DNA from: a virus
Taxonomy: Duplodnaviria > Heunggongvirae > Uroviricota > Caudoviricetes
Reading direction: 5' to 3' (one strand)
Virus record (IMG/VR): IMGVR_UViG_2541047755_000009
DNA length: 40,602 nt
Below, one piece after another: positions 2,000 through 9,125 of this stretch. The position numbers and the translations under genes are program-made. The notes under the pieces were generated by a model. The model was not told where the DNA came from, searched no databases, and saw only the letters and a program-made list of their open reading frames with translations. The stretch's first letter is position 1, and each line of letters opens with the position of its first letter.

Positions 2000-2482
2000 C
2001 TATCTGGTCAGGGTGTCGTACTGTTTTTCACAGACTCTTCCGGCTTCGGCTGCCCGGTCAGCATACTCTGCCAGTTGTCTGTTTCTCTCGAGAGATTTAC
2101 TGAGCACGTCGGCAAGCAAAACTCCGGTGTCTGCGGCTGACGTCCCAGCGCCGACAATGGCGTTATACTGCCTGAGCTGCTCACGGATGGCAACGAGCTG
2201 TTGCTGCAACCGGCCAGCGCGAGCGGCAGCATCAAGAGCATCATTGCGCGCCTGGTCGATCCTCTGCTGCGCTTCACGTTCATTGATCGCTTTCTCCTGT
2301 TCGTAGTGCTGACGAATTCTCTCATCTTCGGTTTTGCGGTCTTCTTTCGCCTGCGCATACCCGGCGTCGTACTGACGACTGCCGTGTACACTCCAGGCAA
2401 CAACTCCTGATATGACCAGAACAGCAAGCACCGCCATGATAATCAACTGTTTCCGGTATGCTTTTACGAATGCCCAGATCAT
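2000..2482 (-). CDS. Rz: i-spanin Rz
   Basis: N-terminal TM helix then Gln/Ala/Arg-rich coiled coil; ATG overlaps the endolysin stop (ATGA); last gene of lysis cassette. Confidence 0.8.
2008..2244 (-). CDS. Rz1: o-spanin Rz1 lipoprotein embedded in the +1 frame of Rz
   Basis: alternate frame inside Rz encodes [13 protein letters not shown] (lipobox LAGC) followed by a Pro/Ser-rich peptide; start codon chosen by eye. Confidence 0.65.
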   Translation of the reverse strand: MMLLMLPLALAGCSNSSLPSVSSSGSITPLSALGRQPQTPEFCLPTCSVNLSRETDNWQSMLTGQPKPEESVKNSTTP

Positions 2483-3108
2483 ACCGCCAGCACCTTACTG
2501 GCATTGATGTATCGCGCGCGCCGGTCGTCGATGCCGTTCCGGCCACCATTGATAATCAGAGTTACACGTGCAATATCGCCGGTATACTTCATGCATCCTT
2601 TGCTGGCAAAGAACCACGCCGCGCTACGAGCCGCGTATTCGTCCTGCGCCAGCAGTTCAGGACTCTCCAGCAGGTCAACCTTAAGACCGTTTCCACAGTC
2701 ACGATAGTTATTCAAACCGGTAACCTGGATAAGCCCGCGCCCACGGTAGTTCCAGCCATCACCAGGGGCATTGTTCCCCATGCGTTTGCTGTACACCAGA
2801 TTGGCAATCGCTCTCTGGCGCTCAAGTGGCAATGGTGGTTCGCCTGCACGTCGCCCCAATGCGTTGGCCTGTCCCTGAGTGAGACGCCCAGCCCGAACAA
2901 AGTTAGCCAGTCCGCTGACGCTGTAGTTGAAATTCTCCTGCAACCGGGTGAAGCCTCCAGACTCATGCCCGACCTGAGCAATAAACATAGCCTGATCTTC
3001 TGGTTTGCTGATACCAAACTCTTTCATCGCAGAAGTTATATGCGAGAACCAGCGTGCGGCCAGTGCCTCGCTGATACCAGCAGCTCGCTGGAATTGTTTA
3101 ATCTCCAT
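2479..3108 (-). CDS. endolysin, glycoside hydrolase family 19 (chitinase-like)
   Basis: GH19 signatures [10 protein letters not shown] and [15 protein letters not shown]; GAGG RBS 8 nt upstream; no N-terminal TM segment so not a SAR endolysin. Confidence 0.85.
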
Positions 3109-3406
3109 GTTTAGACCTCGATACTTTGAAAATTTGAACGACGTTACCGCGCGTTTTAATAACCGCAGCTAGCATGACAGCGTTGATAATGACCTCAGAT
3201 AAATCCACAGCCATTGGCGTACGTAACCAGATTGCATAGGCGACACGAACAGGAATACTGGCCGCAGCAACAATCAGGAAATAAGCAAGCCATCCTCCCC
3301 ACCTTCGGTGTTGAGAGCCGTTACGCCGGAATGTGACAACGCGAATTGCTATGCCAGTGCAAATAACTGCATTGGTGATAAGCAAAAAAAACTCATGCGT
3401 TACCAT
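3098..3406 (-). CDS. lysis-cassette membrane protein (holin or antiholin candidate)
   Basis: 102 aa with about 3 hydrophobic helices; GGGGAGAAAAG RBS; overlaps both the upstream gene end and the endolysin start. Confidence 0.6.
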
Positions 3407-3797
3407 CGTCTTTTCTCCCCGGAATTAACTCGCGTGGATTATCGGAACGGTGATAGAGCCATATACCAATACGCACAGCGACAATTGCTGACACGAATGC
3501 GCCTGCAGAGAAAACAATCCCTTTTTCAAAAGAGTCCTGCGTGATGGTAGGGATCAGGCTGGCTATGCCGATAAGAATTGATGCTGCTGGTTTGTAAAAG
3601 AGAAGGCCGCAAAGAAAGCTGAGCATCGACAGGAGCACCCGGCGACGGATGGGGTACTCTACTGCAGAGGTAACAAAAATTACCGCTCCAGCCAAAGCAC
3701 CCAAAGCAACCTCAGGAGGAACTCCTGCTATCACCGCCGCCAGAGAACTCATGCTAAGCCACTGATTTAAAGTTTCACTGGTTAGTTGAGCTGACAT
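3393..3797 (-). CDS. multi-TM membrane protein (holin candidate)
   Basis: about 134 aa from ATG at 3797 with GGTGGA RBS (track ORF begins at GTG 3806); about 4 predicted TM helices; immediately upstream of the lysis genes. Confidence 0.55.
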   Translation of the reverse strand: MSAQLTSETLNQWLSMSSLAAVIAGVPPEVALGALAGAVIFVTSAVEYPIRRRVLLSMLSFLCGLLFYKPAASILIGIASLIPTITQDSFEKGIVFSAGAFVSAIVAVRIGIWLYHRSDNPRELIPGRKDDGNA

Positions 3798-3999
3798 GTT
3801 TTCCACCGTTTATATGCATAACAACCTCCTGAACAGTAAAGCATTACGCATAATAAACCATTTATGGTTTTTTGTTACTTTAACATCGTCAATTCCCTGT
3901 TTTTCATGCCGAGAATAAAGCTCACCTTTTACATGACTCTGAAGAAACAAACAGTGAAGAGCAGGTTGAATACCGCACCATTTAATGGCGCGGTAGCAG

Positions 4000-4296
4000 T
4001 CAAATAGAGAAATAAACACAAAAACAAAAAACAACAGGAACAGCAAAATCCAACAGACTTCCCACATCCCACACGCGTGGATCAAAACCTCCCCACCACG
4101 GCATGTTGATACGTTTCCCTTTCCCAAACTTTTCTATCCAGCGATATTCTGCCTGGGTGTGTTCACGCGCAATGAAGAACGTACAACCGGCTATCGCACC
4201 GTAAGCCCAGTTTCCGGTAAAAATACCAACCAGTACCTGAGCCACAAAAGCGCAAAGCGAGTGAAGAAATGGAGTGACATCAATGCTCTTAATCAT
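4000..4296 (-). CDS. small membrane protein translationally coupled to the tailspike (function unknown)
   Basis: ATG overlaps the tailspike stop (tcATGA); GGGGAAG RBS; 98 aa with 2-3 hydrophobic helices; AT-rich. Confidence 0.55.
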   Translation of the reverse strand: MIKSIDVTPFLHSLCAFVAQVLVGIFTGNWAYGAIAGCTFFIAREHTQAEYRWIEKFGKGKRINMPWWGGFDPRVWDVGSLLDFAVPVVFCFCVYFSI

Positions 4297-6482
4297 GAAA
4301 CTTCCCCATTGGTTGAAAATATGGCTCCTCCAACGCCAAGTGTATTTCGTGTTGTGCTCAACCTCAGAGGGCTGGAGTCAGAATTAGAATATCCTGTAGC
4401 AGAAATAAAAGATCCTCCACTAATAGTCAACTGCGGAACATCGGCTATATCTGAATAAGTTCTGTCAGCAACAGTATTATTTATAGCCACATATGATCCA
4501 AAAAAACTTCTTATTGTTTGGTTTTTAACTTTACTTCCTTCAATGGTTATCCTACTACCACAGTCGGCAATAAATCCTGAATCTGCATCCAGCGTTGCAT
4601 TCATAAAAGAAGCTTCAGATCTCTCTACATCAATCCATCTAATATCTTTTGTGGGATTTGCACCAAATACATGACAAATATTAGAGTTAAACCTTACACC
4701 ATCTTGGAGGTGCATTAATTTTTTTATATCTGTACCCCATAGCCTTGGAAAATTAACAGATGCTCCTGCATGGCAATCAAATCCCAGCTCAGCCCCTGAG
4801 ATATCTACAGCCTTTCCTGAAATAACAGCACCAGTGTCTGCATTAACGGCTGTTCCACAATTGCGCATATCATTACCAGCAACATCAACGCAACCCGCAC
4901 CATCAATACGCACACCAAGTGCACATCCATAAAAACCTTTTTCAATATTTGGTTCAAGGACTTTACCACTTGTTTCTGCATCACTTTCTTCAACGTCATG
5001 TCGTCTTGCATCAACATATGCTGTATGAATGCAGGTTAATCCACGATATGAGCAATGTATAGTTTTATGGTCGCGTATATTAACATTTGAACCATCTCTT
5101 ACATTCCATCCTATATAACAATAGCTTGCACTTGACCCCTGAAAATCTGCTTTAACATTATAAATACAATTAACTGACGCAACCGTACTCTCTGTGCACC
5201 GTTCAAACTTGCTTACAGGCATTGATGCCTTGACATTATTTACCAGTTGCAGGGAAGAGTATCTGCTATAAGAAAAATCACATACGTAATACCCTTCTGG
5301 CATATATGCAGCAACACTTTCCTCATCAGGAGCACATCCGGTATGATATGCACTAATTTTTGCACCAAAACTACCATGAATTCCAACGTAGAACTTTCGA
5401 GCACCTGAATACGGATAGAAATTAAGTTCAGCTTTTTGAGTTACAATAAATGCACAAACATCGCTATCATCTCTATTTTCTTCGATCTGAATAGCAAATA
5501 CAGGACTTTTTGCTGCATCGCAAATGTAAAATAAATACTTGTATTCGTAATACGTTCTAACGATTTTAGTAAACAAACGAGTGTCAGAGAAAACCACTGA
5601 GTCTTCTGATGTTATTTTAATCCAAGACAAATCAACACCTGAACTGAATTCAATTTGATAGTTGATAATATGCCCGGTCTTAATTCTTATTTCGCAGAAA
5701 GCATTACCACCATCCCACATAGGTCTCATTGACTGGGCTGCAATGATTGCATCTTTGAGTGTAGGGTAATCACCCCATTCGCCAACAGTAATAACAAAAG
5801 TATAATATGAGTTAAAAACAGCGGCATTTTTGCCTTTGGATATCAACTCCTTAATCATAAAAATATTATCTTCGTAATCACAAGGAGAAATTATATCCCT
5901 CATTTTGCTTTGAAATGTTCGTTGTCTTGCCCCGCTTCCTGACGGTATAAACCAACCAAAACCACCAACAACCCCGGCGATTGCAGCATCGACATAATTA
6001 CGCATTGAGCGATTATTTACAGCGTCCTGCTCAAATGATGGATCTGCAAGGTTAGAAATTTTGTTTTGCTTTGCATCGTAATATTTTGCAAGCAAAGATG
6101 GTTTCATCAATGCACGTCTGAACCACCCAAAACATCGCTGGATCAGCATCGTCAGGTAGTCAAATGCATCTTCATGAACTTCGGGGAAAAATTTTCCCTG
6201 ATTGCGAAGATCAGTCTCCTGCACCACATCAAGCACACGCTCTATCGTAATTCGCCAGCCAGCAGCAAGCGGCGACGGGAGAACCACTTCACCGCCACTA
6301 TAAGTGCCCGCTCCAGTTACCTTATAACCGGTATCCAGAACCAATTCTGTTACGTTCCCGTTCAGGTCAGACACCTGAACAACCAGGTCGGTTTTTTTGA
6401 AAATACGGAAGGTATACGGAAATGATGTCGTAACGCCGTTACCGGTGTATTCGTTGTGGTCAACTTCGGTTGAGACCGTCAT
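4293..6482 (-). CDS. tailspike with epsilon15-gp20-like N-terminal particle-binding domain
   Basis: N-terminus MTVSTEVDHNEYTGNGVTTSFPYTFRIFKK...HEDAFDYLTMLIQ matches the conserved epsilon15-type tailspike head-binding module as I recall it; long Gly/Asn/Ser/Thr-rich C-terminal part typical of beta-helix receptor-binding domains. Confidence 0.8.
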   Translation of the reverse strand: MTVSTEVDHNEYTGNGVTTSFPYTFRIFKKTDLVVQVSDLNGNVTELVLDTGYKVTGAGTYSGGEVVLPSPLAAGWRITIERVLDVVQETDLRNQGKFFPEVHEDAFDYLTMLIQRCFGWFRRALMKPSLLAKYYDAKQNKISNLADPSFEQDAVNNRSMRNYVDAAIAGVVGGFGWFIPSGSGARQRTFQSKMRDIISPCDYEDNIFMIKELISKGKNAAVFNSYYTFVITVGEWGDYPTLKDAIIAAQSMRPMWDGGNAFCEIRIKTGHIINYQIEFSSGVDLSWIKITSEDSVVFSDTRLFTKIVRTYYEYKYLFYICDAAKSPVFAIQIEENRDDSDVCAFIVTQKAELNFYPYSGARKFYVGIHGSFGAKISAYHTGCAPDEESVAAYMPEGYYVCDFSYSRYSSLQLVNNVKASMPVSKFERCTESTVASVNCIYNVKADFQGSSASYCYIGWNVRDGSNVNIRDHKTIHCSYRGLTCIHTAYVDARRHDVEESDAETSGKVLEPNIEKGFYGCALGVRIDGAGCVDVAGNDMRNCGTAVNADTGAVISGKAVDISGAELGFDCHAGASVNFPRLWGTDIKKLMHLQDGVRFNSNICHVFGANPTKDIRWIDVERSEASFMNATLDADSGFIADCGSRITIEGSKVKNQTIRSFFGSYVAINNTVADRTYSDIADVPQLTISGGSFISATGYSNSDSSPLRLSTTRNTLGVGGAIFSTNGEVS

Positions 6483-6585
6483 GTTAAATCTCCAGATAGT
6501 CGCAGCACCCGTTGCGCCGCATATCTGGTTATTCTATTACCTGTAAAACCACATATGGATAGAAAGACTGTAAATACGAATAGAT

Positions 6586-6602
6586 ATTACCTTTCAGGTA
6601 AT
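6586..6602. promoter_or_regulatory. operator-like palindrome ATTACC-TTTCA-GGTAAT (site A)
   Basis: perfect 6+5+6 inverted repeat abutting a TTGCAA -35-like hexamer upstream of the 6678 gene. Confidence 0.55.
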
Positions 6603-6640
6603 TTGCAAAACGTGCTGGATAGCAAACAAATTATTTGATA

Positions 6641-6656
6641 CTGTATAAATATACAG
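6641..6656. promoter_or_regulatory. LexA (SOS) box
   Basis: taCTGTataaatatACAGtt, i.e. CTGT-N8-ACAG with AT-rich spacer, near-perfect to the enterobacterial LexA consensus; about 20 nt upstream of the GGAGAAG RBS / ATG at 6678. Confidence 0.8.
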
Positions 6657-6677
6657 TTATTGCATGGAGAAGATAAG

Positions 6678-6935
6678 ATGCAGCAGTATCACTATCCACT
6701 GGAAGACGGATTTACCGAAAGGATTCACACGCCGGGAGGCGTCAGGTCACTGGTGGAGGGATCGCACTTGATGAAATTACTCCGGGATCTCGATAAGGAT
6801 GGATTTAATGTCGATGGCCCACTTGCCGAACTGACTGCACTGATTAACTACGTCACCAGCTCACAGATGTCTATGCGGGATCTGCAAACACATCTCGACT
6901 ATTGTGCCGAACAATTACGAAAACAAACCAGATAA
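6678..6935 (+). CDS. small antirepressor-like protein (stand-alone copy of the Bro-N protein C-terminal domain)
   Basis: 85 aa; RBS GGAGAAG; about 75 aa align with the C-terminus of the 7249-7935 product (LMKLLRDLDKDGFNVDGPLAELT...RDLQTH versus LLMNLLNQLQEDGHDVSGAAAELT...RDIQTH). Confidence 0.65.
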   Translation: MQQYHYPLEDGFTERIHTPGGVRSLVEGSHLMKLLRDLDKDGFNVDGPLAELTALINYVTSSQMSMRDLQTHLDYCAEQLRKQTR

Positions 6936-6965
6936 GGTTTGCAATTGCCAAGTGGAGTGCTTATA

Positions 6966-6982
6966 TTTACCTTTGCGGTAAA
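6966..6982. promoter_or_regulatory. operator-like palindrome TTTACC-TTTGC-GGTAAA (site I) inside a GGAGTGC / GCACTCC hairpin
   Basis: same half-site family; sits in the 310-nt untranslated gap between the two antirepressor-like genes. Confidence 0.45.
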
Positions 6983-7248
6983 TTTACATCGCACTCCTCT
7001 TGTGCCATAGTAATCGGGCACTGGCAAAATCCAGTGCCGGGATTGGCGTCCCGAGTTACTACAGAGGCACATATGCCGCATAAGCGGTTTTTTTTATGTG
7101 TAAAGCGCACCTATTCTATGGTGGGCTGTGTGGGGGCACCGAAAGGTGCGCCGGGTCCTTTGTAGCCGGTTACGCCAACCCTGCACAGTTCACCACCAAC
7201 CGATTGGCGTCGGTAGTGGTGATTAACCTAACTACAAAGGTGATCACT

Positions 7249-7935
7249 ATGACTGCTAACGTAACCCCATCTGTTTTTCATTTTGAATCAGAAGCAACCA
7301 TTCGAGCCATTGTTATTGATGGAAATCCTTGGTTTGTTGCCAAAGACGTTATTAAAGCTCTTCAACTGACAAACCCCACTATGTCAATAAAATCTCTTGA
7401 TGATGATGAAAGGGCTAAATTTAACTTAGGCCGTCAAGGCGAAACCAATATTATCAACGAGTCAGGCCTCTACACACTGATCCTCCGCTGCCGCGATGCA
7501 GTAACACCAGGCACTATCCCCTACCGCTTTCGCAAATGGGTTACAGGTGAGGTTCTTCCTCAGATCCGCCGCACCGGAAGTTACATTAAAAACTCGCTCC
7601 CGCAGGAAGAACGCATAAAGATGGTTGCCGACCAGGTTGCAAACGCCACAGCATCAGCAGTGATGCAGGCAATGAAGATAGAGAACAAAACCTACAGCGC
7701 CCCACTGAAGCCCGGCTACCGCAGCCTGATTCATTCGCCGTCTGGTGTTCTCGGCCTGACGGAGAACTCACTGCTGATGAATTTGCTGAACCAGTTACAG
7801 GAAGACGGGCATGACGTATCGGGCGCGGCGGCGGAGCTGACTACCATGTTCTGCTACATCGTCGGTGTGAGCAAATGCCTGCGTGATATCCAGACGCACG
7901 CGGAGTACATCAACGACAAGGCAGGGTTCTTCTGA
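7249..7935 (+). CDS. phage antirepressor with Bro-N domain
   Basis: Bro-N signature IRAIVIDGNPWFVAKDVIKALQL; AAGGTGA RBS before ATG 7249; C-terminal domain shared with the 6678 gene. Confidence 0.8.
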   Translation: MTANVTPSVFHFESEATIRAIVIDGNPWFVAKDVIKALQLTNPTMSIKSLDDDERAKFNLGRQGETNIINESGLYTLILRCRDAVTPGTIPYRFRKWVTGEVLPQIRRTGSYIKNSLPQEERIKMVADQVANATASAVMQAMKIENKTYSAPLKPGYRSLIHSPSGVLGLTENSLLMNLLNQLQEDGHDVSGAAAELTTMFCYIVGVSKCLRDIQTHAEYINDKAGFF

Positions 7936-7946
7936 CAGAACGGCGG

Positions 7947-7972
7947 CACAGGGATGTGCCTTTAAATAATTC
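7947..7972 (+). terminator. terminator-like hairpin after the Bro-N gene
   Basis: GGCACA-GGGA-TGTGCC followed by TTTAAATAATT. Confidence 0.45.
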
Positions 7973-8007
7973 TGTACAGATTGCAGACCGGGGGTGAATA
8001 GCGTACT

Positions 8008-8024
8008 ATTACCTTAAAGGTAAA
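8008..8024. promoter_or_regulatory. operator-like palindrome ATTACC-TTAAA-GGTAAA (site B) with promoter-like TTGCAG / TACTAT hexamers
   Basis: sits between a putative -10 and the GAGGAGG RBS of the 8050 gene. Confidence 0.5.
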
Positions 8025-8049
8025 CCATGTGTTTACATGAGGAGGAGAT

Positions 8050-8259
8050 ATGGGATTTTGGTTCGCTCGTACAAAAACGAGGGATAATGCACCCAGCCCT
8101 CAGGCAAAAAATGCAGAAGTTCCGGCGTCAGCGCAGGTTAACAAGCGTGGTGGTGTGTATATCTCATCACAGCAAATTTCTGAGCTTCCTGAGGTTAAGG
8201 AGATGCGTCGTCTCGCTGCTGCAATCGTTAAACAGGATCTTGCCACTGTAAGGAAATAG
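8050..8259 (+). CDS. hypothetical small hydrophilic protein, first gene of accessory cassette
   Basis: strong RBS GAGGAGG then ATG; 69 aa; stop TAG overlaps the GTG start of the next gene (taGTG). Confidence 0.6.
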   Translation: MGFWFARTKTRDNAPSPQAKNAEVPASAQVNKRGGVYISSQQISELPEVKEMRRLAAAIVKQDLATVRK

Positions 8260-9125
8260 TGTTGTTAGCTCTTCTAATTATCCCCATTCTGGTTAGTGGT
8301 TATATTATGATAACCGCTAACCAGTATCATTATTTCCGTTTATACCGACATGAAGGCCAGCTTCTTTATATGAAAGTAGCTGCATTAGGTACATATTGCC
8401 TTGTTGCTTCGGTAATAATTGCCGCATTTATAAAATATAAATATCCTGATTTTCACCTAGTTCACGATATGGTGGAAACTTTTAATGTAACGTCAAAACC
8501 AGAAACAGATAGAATTTACATGTGGCTGCTTCTTCTCTCAGCCACATCCATTTGCTTCTCTTTGTGTTATGTGTCTGTTGTGTGGGTGAAAGATTTTCTT
8601 CTTGGTTGTTTTTATAAACGTGATATTTATGAGCAAAAAACAGAGGCAATGAAGGCCAGAGTACTGCGAAAAACTTACTCGCAAGGTTCTTTAGACTTAC
8701 TATTGCTTGATGCTATTGAATCGGATCCTAAACGACCAATGCTGATTACTTTATCATCAAACAAAGTGTATGTTGGAATAATAAATGGTTCTGGTGAACC
8801 AACGGAAAATCAGGGTCCGCATCAGCACATATCTTTTGTTCCTTTAATGTCAGGATACAGGAACAAAGACAACTTATCTGTCACATTCACTAATGCTTAT
8901 CCAGGAGAAATACAGGTCAAGCGGACTGCAGCAATAAGAGGAATTAGCAGAAAGAAAGTGCCAGGACTTGAGATCATGGTGTCTATTGACGAAATAAGTT
9001 ATATATCATGGTTTGATTTTGAAGTATATAAAGCAACAAATAACAAAGTAGAATCCAGGGGGCACGTTATTCGTGTTACCAAAAATGGAAGAAATATATA
9101 TCAAAGAAATAGCAAAAAAGAATAG
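8259..9125 (+). CDS. membrane-anchored protein, 3 N-terminal TM helices plus about 180-aa soluble domain (unknown function; exclusion/defense candidate)
   Basis: 288 aa; GTG start coupled to upstream stop; visibly AT-rich codon usage unlike the neighbouring phage genes; intrinsic terminator directly downstream. Confidence 0.65.
   Translation: MLLALLIIPILVSGYIMITANQYHYFRLYRHEGQLLYMKVAALGTYCLVASVIIAAFIKYKYPDFHLVHDMVETFNVTSKPETDRIYMWLLLLSATSICFSLCYVSVVWVKDFLLGCFYKRDIYEQKTEAMKARVLRKTYSQGSLDLLLLDAIESDPKRPMLITLSSNKVYVGIINGSGEPTENQGPHQHISFVPLMSGYRNKDNLSVTFTNAYPGEIQVKRTAAIRGISRKKVPGLEIMVSIDEISYISWFDFEVYKATNNKVESRGHVIRVTKNGRNIYQRNSKKE

Follow-up and report, generated by a model that had tools for sequence, protein, structure and literature searches.

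A small membrane-protein gene overlapping the tailspike gene of an epsilon15-like Escherichia coli prophage has relatives behind unrelated receptor-binding genes

The 40,602-nucleotide (nt) stretch of viral DNA analysed here (IMG/VR record IMGVR_UViG_2541047755_000009; the whole stretch is referred to as the window) carries, between its tailspike gene and its lysis genes, a gene for a membrane protein of 98 amino acids (aa). The window is 99.8% identical to Escherichia phage HEMP4, and the region in question forms the late end of an E. coli prophage of the epsilon15-like (Uetakevirus) type, in which the tailspike gene, one cargo gene and a complete lysis cassette follow one another, all on the minus strand. 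The 98-aa gene is real, common and unexplained, and the lysis-cassette half of the region is ordinary. The reading that we favour, with a probability of roughly 0.55, is that the 98-aa gene is a late gene coupled to a receptor-binding gene and not a classical lysogenic conversion gene; in any specific biochemical role for its product our confidence is much lower. The sequence was already present in the databases as a hypothetical protein, and its family is catalogued as phrog_1443. What is new is that this family is documented to be linked to receptor-binding genes in different phage types and host classes, that it has a conserved polar site, and that there is evidence against its expression in lysogens.

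Genes located directly behind phage receptor-binding genes usually determine with which partners an infection can take place, through receptor modification or phage exclusion, and are exchanged together with host-range modules. If the 98-aa protein controls entry, lysis timing or the state of the envelope, it would bear on the competition between prophages, on host-range engineering with swapped tailspike modules, and on the reading of serotype from prophage tailspikes.

Overlap with, and plausible coupling to, the tailspike gene

The start of the 98-aa gene had been predicted to overlap the stop codon of the tailspike gene as ATGA, and this can be read directly from bases 4293-4296 of the window (Table 1). 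The P22-like phage JEP4 has the same 4-nt overlap, as do 11 of 80 viral contigs and 11 of 67 species genomes. Together with a Shine-Dalgarno (SD)-like sequence that lies within the tailspike open reading frame (ORF), it makes translational coupling of the 98-aa gene to the tailspike plausible. Neither in the window nor in JEP4 or phage 21 was a sigma-70-like site found just 5' of the gene.

The N-terminal residues 1-206 of the tailspike match phrog_1171/13893, and its receptor-binding part has a low G+C content (0.33-0.42). Window positions 4037-5657, which cover the receptor-binding part and most of the 98-aa gene, are 98% identical to JEP4. The tailspike gene and the 98-aa gene are exchanged between phage genera as a single module.

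The 98-aa protein and its family

That the 98-aa ORF is a real gene follows from its 428 homologues, a ratio of nonsynonymous to synonymous substitution rates (dN/dS) of 0.17-0.36 against E. coli homologues, and a confident three-helix model. The gene is under purifying selection. The 428 relatives were found among 5.8 billion proteins, and all of those listed are named 'hypothetical'; a profile search of 1.84 billion representative proteins returned 435, the best 150 of which, as listed, are stand-alone proteins of 58-146 aa. One UniRef name within the family is 'Ybl63'.

Residues 5-98 of the protein align with positions 1-94 of the 97-position phrog_1443 profile (E=3.3e-55), which carries no functional annotation in PHROGs, and the only other PHROG match, phrog_34165, is likewise without known function. 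No Pfam or NCBIfam match was obtained at E up to 1. In Pfam, NCBIfam and PHROGs the protein matched no holin or antiholin profile, in agreement with the original suggestion that it may not be a holin, and none of the Gtr, acyltransferase (Oac/OafA) or Wzy-like families. A search of PADLOC-DB gave only PDC-M40B (E=0.088 over 23 residues), which was counted as no match. Pfam searches with ten distant homologues yielded nothing meaningful, a profile search of PDB sequences with the family yielded nothing, and fold searches with the model returned generic helical matches only.

The AlphaFold (AF2) model, with a predicted local distance difference test (pLDDT) score of 90.6, consists of three helices spanning residues 8-27, 30-57 and 78-97. 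Residues D6, H12, Q20, C38, R44, E45, T47, Q48, E50, Y51, R52 and W53 are invariant in the family alignment (A1), as are M65, P66, W68, G69, G70, D72, W76 and C91. The family contains an unusually conserved polar segment, FIAREHTQAEYRWI..FG.GKR.NMPWWGGFD.RVW. Judging by the order of the helices in the model, D6, H12, R44-E45-H46, E50, Y51, R52 and the MPWWGGFD loop are all located at one membrane face, and a positive-inside count places the conserved loop in the cytoplasm (5.4 K/R versus <0.6 elsewhere). The protein has no hydrophilic, charged C-terminal tail, as it ends at helix 3 (mean C-tail content 0.57 K/R and 0.17 D/E). It also has no lipobox: [LVI][ASTVI][GAS]C is absent, LHSLC (residues 11-15) is off consensus, and C15 is not conserved.

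Linkage to unrelated receptor-binding genes

Among complete E. coli genomes, 1918 of 5426 (35%) carry members of the family, with a median of two copies and a maximum of seven, and one strain often has them in several of its prophages. In 72 of 80 viral contigs the gene starts at most 40 nt past an ORF on the same strand. Such same-strand adjacency to mutually unrelated receptor-binding proteins was observed in podovirus, siphovirus and myovirus prophages, and in hosts belonging to the Gamma-, Beta-, Alpha- and Deltaproteobacteria. The upstream genes encode P22-like tailspikes in JEP4 (with the ATGA overlap), Gally and 611R6; stf-type proteins in the lambdoid phages 21, 1H12, 4A7 and Tritos, with a 92-aa acidic protein in between; lambdoid short tail-fibre proteins; a protein of 237 aa with a tail-fibre domain; tailspikes in Leclercia and Desulfovibrio; and a J-like tip protein in Comamonas. 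A tail protein in Chelativorans and a Phage_tail_fib protein of an Aeromonas P2-like prophage, the latter within the tail operon, are again joined to the gene by an ATGA overlap.

Within E. coli alone, the same protein, at 75-90% identity, is found behind no fewer than eight receptor-binding domains that are unrelated to one another. Over their last 150 residues, the upstream proteins separate into many clusters without mutual relationship, and the small protein stays conserved. As the upstream C-termini are unrelated, the 98-aa protein is not matched to any one receptor-binding fold. A toxin-immunity pair, in which a variable C-terminus is accompanied by a small immunity gene, was also considered and is ruled out by the same pattern of variable upstream C-termini and a constant small protein.

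No conserved adjacency to endolysin or spanin genes was seen in JEP4, Gally, 611R6, phage 21, 1H12, 4A7, Tritos or the P2-like Aeromonas prophage; downstream of the homologue, these carry int, sit, pin or tail genes. The copy in the jumbo Aeromonas phage PS1 is next to DarB-like and tail-fibre genes, and the part of PS1 that was read shows no sign of lysogeny. In Sphingomonadales, the family turns up sporadically in the chromosome, following ligA, DAHP synthase, PNPase or a NadB-like gene. The copies from Sphingomonadales and other Alphaproteobacteria (loci L145, L151, L129, L123 and L140) often show a 4-nt overlap and carry Arg-rich C-tails that are missing in the phage copies.

An acidic, soluble protein of 92-100 aa (phrog_1361/phrog_18574) is encoded adjacent to the 98-aa-family gene at three loci (L004, 4710-4988; L154, 2130-2411; L163, 4549-4851), 5' of it in lambdoid phages and 3' of it in a metagenomic phage, which suggests that the two genes constitute an accessory module beside tail fibres. 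In Comamonas nitrativorans and Pigmentiphaga humi (L113 and L117; ~4800-8400), the homologue is located between an unscanned upstream ORF of ~370-400 aa and a diversity-generating retroelement (DGR) bAvd-RT pair. In three Aeromonas loci (L091, L092 and L096), one or two lipid A acyltransferase (Lip_A_acyltrans) genes are found 1-3 kb downstream, in tandem in L091 and L092. A linked lipopolysaccharide (LPS) function is one way to read these genes; given that they are on the opposite strand and were seen in Aeromonas only, they are probably host flank.

In phiv142-3 (L001), a knock-out of the tail-fibre gene orf6 led to poorer growth in serum and in iron-limited medium (PMC7724020). The homologue of the 98-aa gene, orf5, starts 77-79 nt past orf6. 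A polar effect of the knock-out on orf5 is conceivable, and we draw no conclusion on the family from the orf6 phenotypes.

Expression of homologues in lysogens

E. coli LF82 contains three homologues, in the prophages Gally, Perceval and Tritos. In RNA-seq data of LF82 lysogens, none of the three is among the autonomously expressed prophage genes or morons (PMC9928086 Table 1). In S1 Table of the same study, GALLYPH_17 stands at 18.3 (background 15.6, cut-off 78), PERCE_24 at 11.5 and TRITO_22 at 10.4, and when conditions are compared, the values of GALLYPH_17 and PERCE_24 go up along with those of the adjoining tail genes (PMC9928086). All three homologues are at prophage background in lysogens, and the lysogen expression that typifies conversion genes was not seen. 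This result applies to the LF82 homologues and not to the prophage of the window.

The variable slot between tailspike and lysis cassette

The contents of the slot occupied by the 98-aa gene differ between related phages. In epsilon15 it holds a Wzy-like polymerase gene and that of its alpha-polymerase inhibitor (gp21/gp22), in phiV10 oac, and in SPN1S gtrA and an acetylase gene, in each case on the strand opposite to the tailspike gene. TL-2011b carries an O-acetyltransferase gene on the same strand as its tailspike gene, the slot of ZX5 is empty, and the window, HEMP4, phiv142-3 and EC.W1-9 have the 98-aa gene instead. The earlier remark that O-antigen conversion genes reside at this position in epsilon15-type phages is therefore borne out by epsilon15, phiV10, SPN1S and TL-2011b, and concerns the 98-aa gene only. 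Indeed, by location the 98-aa gene is placed as a conversion gene would be, adjoining the tailspike gene in the conversion slot.

In Escherichia phage vB_EcoP-611R6 (611R6; L155, 1908-3791), the tailspike gene is followed by an overlapping OafA-type O-acetylase gene, a 37-codon ORF annotated as a tail fiber protein, and then the homologue. The homologue appears to have arrived here attached to the 3' end of a tail-fibre gene of foreign origin, of which the 37 codons are the remnant.

Possible functions of the 98-aa protein

In the reading that we favour, the 98-aa gene would be the last cistron of the tailspike message, made by translational coupling late in the lytic cycle. Its product would insert into the inner membrane of the virus-producing cell and may have an autonomous, receptor-independent activity in that membrane. 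With low confidence, we suggest that this activity is protection or exclusion at the level of the membrane, or lysis timing, with O-antigen chemistry being less likely. More tentatively still than the coupling itself, phrog_1443 might represent a new functional class, namely late, coupled inner-membrane proteins behind receptor-binding genes in all three tail morphotypes, with an enzymatic or ion/metal-binding Asp/His/Glu site that conditions the envelope of the producing cell. If true, the activity could be a new mechanism of exclusion, lysis control or envelope remodelling.

The 98-aa protein had been proposed to be a serotype-converting or exclusion factor. As a conversion protein, it would modify the receptor in the lysogen and prevent the cognate phage from adsorbing, for instance through inhibition of Wzy, Wzz or WaaL in the manner of epsilon15 gp22 or D3 Iap. 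We regard this as improbable, even though the gene occupies the exact slot of O-antigen polymerase and inhibitor, acetyltransferase and gtrA genes in epsilon15, phiV10, SPN1S and TL-2011b, and the tailspike-int slot of P22-like phages, where P22 has gtrABC; the homologue in 611R6 sits in that slot, 3' of its OafA-type acetylase gene, and the polymerase inhibitors described so far are small and membrane-bound (gp22 of epsilon15, for one, has two transmembrane (TM) segments). The conversion genes of epsilon15, phiV10, SPN1S and P22, which also encode membrane proteins and are annotated under lysogeny or superinfection immunity, have no sequence relation to the 98-aa gene. They are mostly on the opposite strand, with room for promoters of their own, whereas the 98-aa gene overlaps the tailspike stop; and each of them fits one O-antigen chemistry, whereas the 98-aa gene is independent of receptor type, following J-like, P2-like and other tail proteins in addition to the unrelated domains found in E. 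coli, a range that is difficult to reconcile with sugar-specific chemistry. It is this independence, together with silence in LF82 lysogens, the multiple copies per genome, and the copies in a jumbo phage and in non-phage chromosomes, that disfavours classical O-antigen conversion, and the same evidence (the unrelated receptor-binding proteins, the PS1 and Sphingomonadales copies, and the LF82 homologues at background) tells against the proposed action as a converting or exclusion factor in the lysogen. Superinfection exclusion at the inner membrane, blocking DNA entry as T4 Imm, P22 SieA and HK97 gp15 do and exchanged along with receptor-binding modules, is a rather unlikely role. Linkage to receptor-binding genes is a known pattern for Cor, Llp, gtr and oac (PMC10408124 in part, otherwise general knowledge), the protein is small, resides in the inner membrane and has its conserved site at one face of that membrane, and its sporadic chromosomal distribution is typical of defence genes. 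Yet the LF82 homologues gave no sign of lysogen expression, PADLOC gave no match, the carriers differ in their route of DNA entry (podo-, sipho- and myoviruses), and late expression would bring little obvious benefit. Imm, SieA and gp15 are, like the 98-aa protein, small phage-encoded inner-membrane proteins, and searches of Pfam, NCBIfam, PHROGs and PADLOC detected no homology between them and it. The gene for Imm is early and those for SieA and gp15 are expressed from the prophage, whereas homologues of the 98-aa gene follow the late genes in the single dataset that was found. Cor (phi80, N15, HK022) and Llp (T5) resemble the 98-aa protein in being small envelope proteins encoded beside receptor-binding genes and moving with them, but they are outer-membrane lipoproteins that block a single receptor (FhuA), whereas the 98-aa protein is polytopic, has no lipobox and is not bound to a receptor.

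A part in lysis, as a third holin or antiholin or as a modulator of lysis timing that accumulates late in the membrane, would suit a small, late protein with three TM helices whose gene, in the window, is directly 5' of the lysis cassette. Holins follow the tail-fibre genes of T7 and T4, and T7 gp17.5 and T4 gpt are, like the 98-aa protein, small membrane proteins encoded after a receptor-binding gene. A metagenomic phage has a lysozyme gene ~1.5 kb downstream of its homologue, and behind the Comamonas homologue come genes for two small proteins that have hydrophobic segments and for a 183-aa phrog_3108 protein; those two proteins (125 and 99 aa) were considered as gp23 and gp24 by position, and this was rejected, as they have no significant similarity to either. 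The holin role is disfavoured by the lack of a holin-family match, of a charged tail and, in most carriers (P22-like, lambdoid and P2-like), of adjoining annotated lysis genes, and conservation resides in the polar loop rather than in the TM segments; we consider a lysis function distinctly unlikely. Finally, the protein might be a membrane-anchored helper in the maturation or assembly of receptor-binding proteins. Such a role is possible given that the gene strictly adjoins receptor-binding genes, even within a P2-like prophage tail operon, recurs with the small acidic phrog_1361/18574 protein beside tail fibres, and could by translational coupling be produced in stoichiometric amounts. It is nevertheless very unlikely, as neither a fold nor a C-terminal domain is common to the upstream proteins, the 98-aa gene is missing beside the related tailspikes of epsilon15, phiV10 and ZX5, chromosomal copies have no phage genes nearby and, to our knowledge, no membrane-embedded fibre chaperone has been described.

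Several points weigh against the reading of a late, coupled gene that is not a conversion gene. The analogy of the slot favours O-antigen modification, and orientation alone leaves conversion possible, since the O-acetylase genes of TL-2011b and 611R6 share the strand of the tailspike. TRITO_22 is flat and does not rise alongside its tail genes (PMC9928086), and the LF82 data cover only LB (lysogeny broth), DMEM (Dulbecco's modified Eagle medium) and macrophage conditions, so that low constitutive expression is possible. The side on which the conserved loop lies is disputed: the alphaproteobacterial copies carry Arg-rich C-tails, and a TMHMM model cited in the record of phage 21 has both termini inside and the conserved loop outside. 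Because of the chromosomal copies in Sphingomonadales, a protein of the 98-aa type need not have a phage-specific task. Furthermore, no relative of known function was found for the family by structure or by sequence, and no functional study was found in the literature on the 98-aa gene, 'Ybl63' or tail-fibre-linked membrane proteins. For annotation, position alone is no ground for naming the 98-aa protein a holin or a conversion gene.

The lysis cassette and the 134-aa protein

The original prediction grouped a second membrane protein, of 134 aa, with the 98-aa protein as an extra gene and possible conversion factor. This did not hold. The 134-aa protein is an ordinary lysis gene of the gp23 type, encoded beyond the variable slot. 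Its identity to epsilon15 gp23 is 93%, and it matches Pfam Phage_holin_8 (PF16931) at 46.6 bits, above the cut-off of 26.4 (E=4.4e-12), as well as the holin family phrog_198 (E=6.9e-42). A match to an established holin family is the very outcome that had been named as speaking against the proposal. The 102-aa protein encoded next is 82% identical to epsilon15 gp24 and matches Phage_holin_3_7 (PF05449) at 94.2 bits (cut-off 25.4). Both are direct homologues of the epsilon15 proteins and are encoded at the same position. The 134-aa ORF overlaps the 102-aa ORF by 14 nt, the latter in turn overlaps the endolysin gene, and the Rz/Rz1 layout is the same as in epsilon15 and phiV10.

The overlapping pair precedes the endolysin gene in all six other Uetakevirus-type phages examined (phiv142-3, epsilon15, phiV10, TL-2011b, ZX5 and SPN1S). 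It had been argued that one holin is enough for a lysis cassette, which carries no weight here, as the 134-aa protein and the 102-aa holin occur together in every Uetakevirus inspected. The holin-family matches, the identity to gp23, the constant pairing and the conserved leader described below identify the 134-aa gene as the first gene of the lysis cassette and neither as cargo nor as a conversion factor, and it should be annotated as part of that cassette. Its family and position indicate that its product is most likely a co-holin or antiholin that sets lysis timing; we found no experimental paper on gp23-type proteins. Of its description as a four-helix membrane protein, the membrane location stands and the number of helices is uncertain: the epsilon15 record annotates three TM segments, and the sequence has three to four hydrophobic stretches.

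Spacer, hairpin and leader of the lysis cassette

The AT-rich gap of about 190 nt that had been described between the two membrane-protein genes was found to measure 193 nt when counted to a GTG start and 202 nt when counted to the ATG at 3797, the start of the 134-aa product in the epsilon15 annotation. When the spacer is aligned with phiv142-3, epsilon15 and phiV10, it divides in two: the distal part (3870-3999) travels with the 98-aa gene, and the proximal part constitutes the conserved lysis-cassette leader. The hairpin shortly past the 98-aa stop codon (Table 1) recurs in other Uetakevirus copies, where a G-U pair has become G-C, and a hairpin or terminator is present 3' of the 98-aa-family gene in most of the lineages inspected.

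The ~70 nt 5' of the holin pair are conserved in all four aligned phages, regardless of the content of the slot further upstream. This leader contains an inverted repeat, AACCAT-AA-ATGGTT (3856-3869), directly 5' of a -10-like TATTAT (3850-3855), and both are conserved before the lysis cassette in phiv142-3, epsilon15 and phiV10. They could constitute a late promoter or an operator; the promoter-like match is by itself not above chance, and the epsilon15 record annotates an RNase III site in front of the lysis cassette. The leader also holds a strong SD sequence, AGGAGG (3825-3830), followed 5 nt on by an ATG (3817-3819). This ATG opens a 14-codon upstream ORF that terminates just inside the gp23-like gene. 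Conservation in epsilon15 and phiV10 extends to both the SD and the ATG, and a 1-nt indel shifts the frame, such that the peptide is not conserved. These elements may serve the translational control of the lysis cassette. A scan of 3300-4700 against Rfam gave sub-threshold chance matches only.

Table 1. Features of the region from the tailspike gene to the spanin genes (window coordinates)
Feature	Position	Strand	Evidence and remarks
Tailspike, 729 aa	4293-6482	-	phrog_5662 full length, E=0; epsilon15-type N-terminal anchor
Putative SD-like sequence GGGGAAG	4301-4307	-	4 nt 5' of the 98-aa ATG, within the tailspike ORF
ATGA overlap of tailspike stop and 98-aa start	4293-4296	-	Plus strand reads tcat; ATG 4296-4294, TGA 4295-4293
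98-aa three-helix membrane protein, sole cargo in the variable slot	4000-4296	-	phrog_1443, E=3e-55
AT-rich spacer	3807-3999	-	G+C content 0.385 (3800-3999) versus 0.45-0.52 on the flanks
Hairpin, 11 bp, no U-tract	3971-3995	-	Begins 5 nt past the 98-aa stop; centroid -17.4 kcal/mol, z = -4.0
Lysis-cassette leader	3798-3869	-	Conserved across the genus
134-aa membrane protein, epsilon15 gp23 homologue, lysis-cassette gene 1	3393-3797 (from ATG)	-	PF16931, phrog_198
102-aa holin, epsilon15 gp24 homologue	3098-3406	-	PF05449, phrog_217 holin
GH19-type endolysin	2479-3108	-	PF00182; phrog_181 endolysin, 2.5e-91
Rz-like i-spanin	2000-2482	-	DUF2514, phrog_312
Rz1 lipoprotein ORF embedded in Rz	2008-2283	-	Lipobox LALAGC

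A transposase-like ORF beyond the lysis cassette

On the minus strand at 1219-1728, the window contains a 169-aa ORF whose translation, on reading, resembles TnpA of the IS200/IS605 type. It is located between the end of the prophage (the Rz stop at 2000) and host-like genes at 1-1071, at the position that corresponds to attP in epsilon15 and phiV10.

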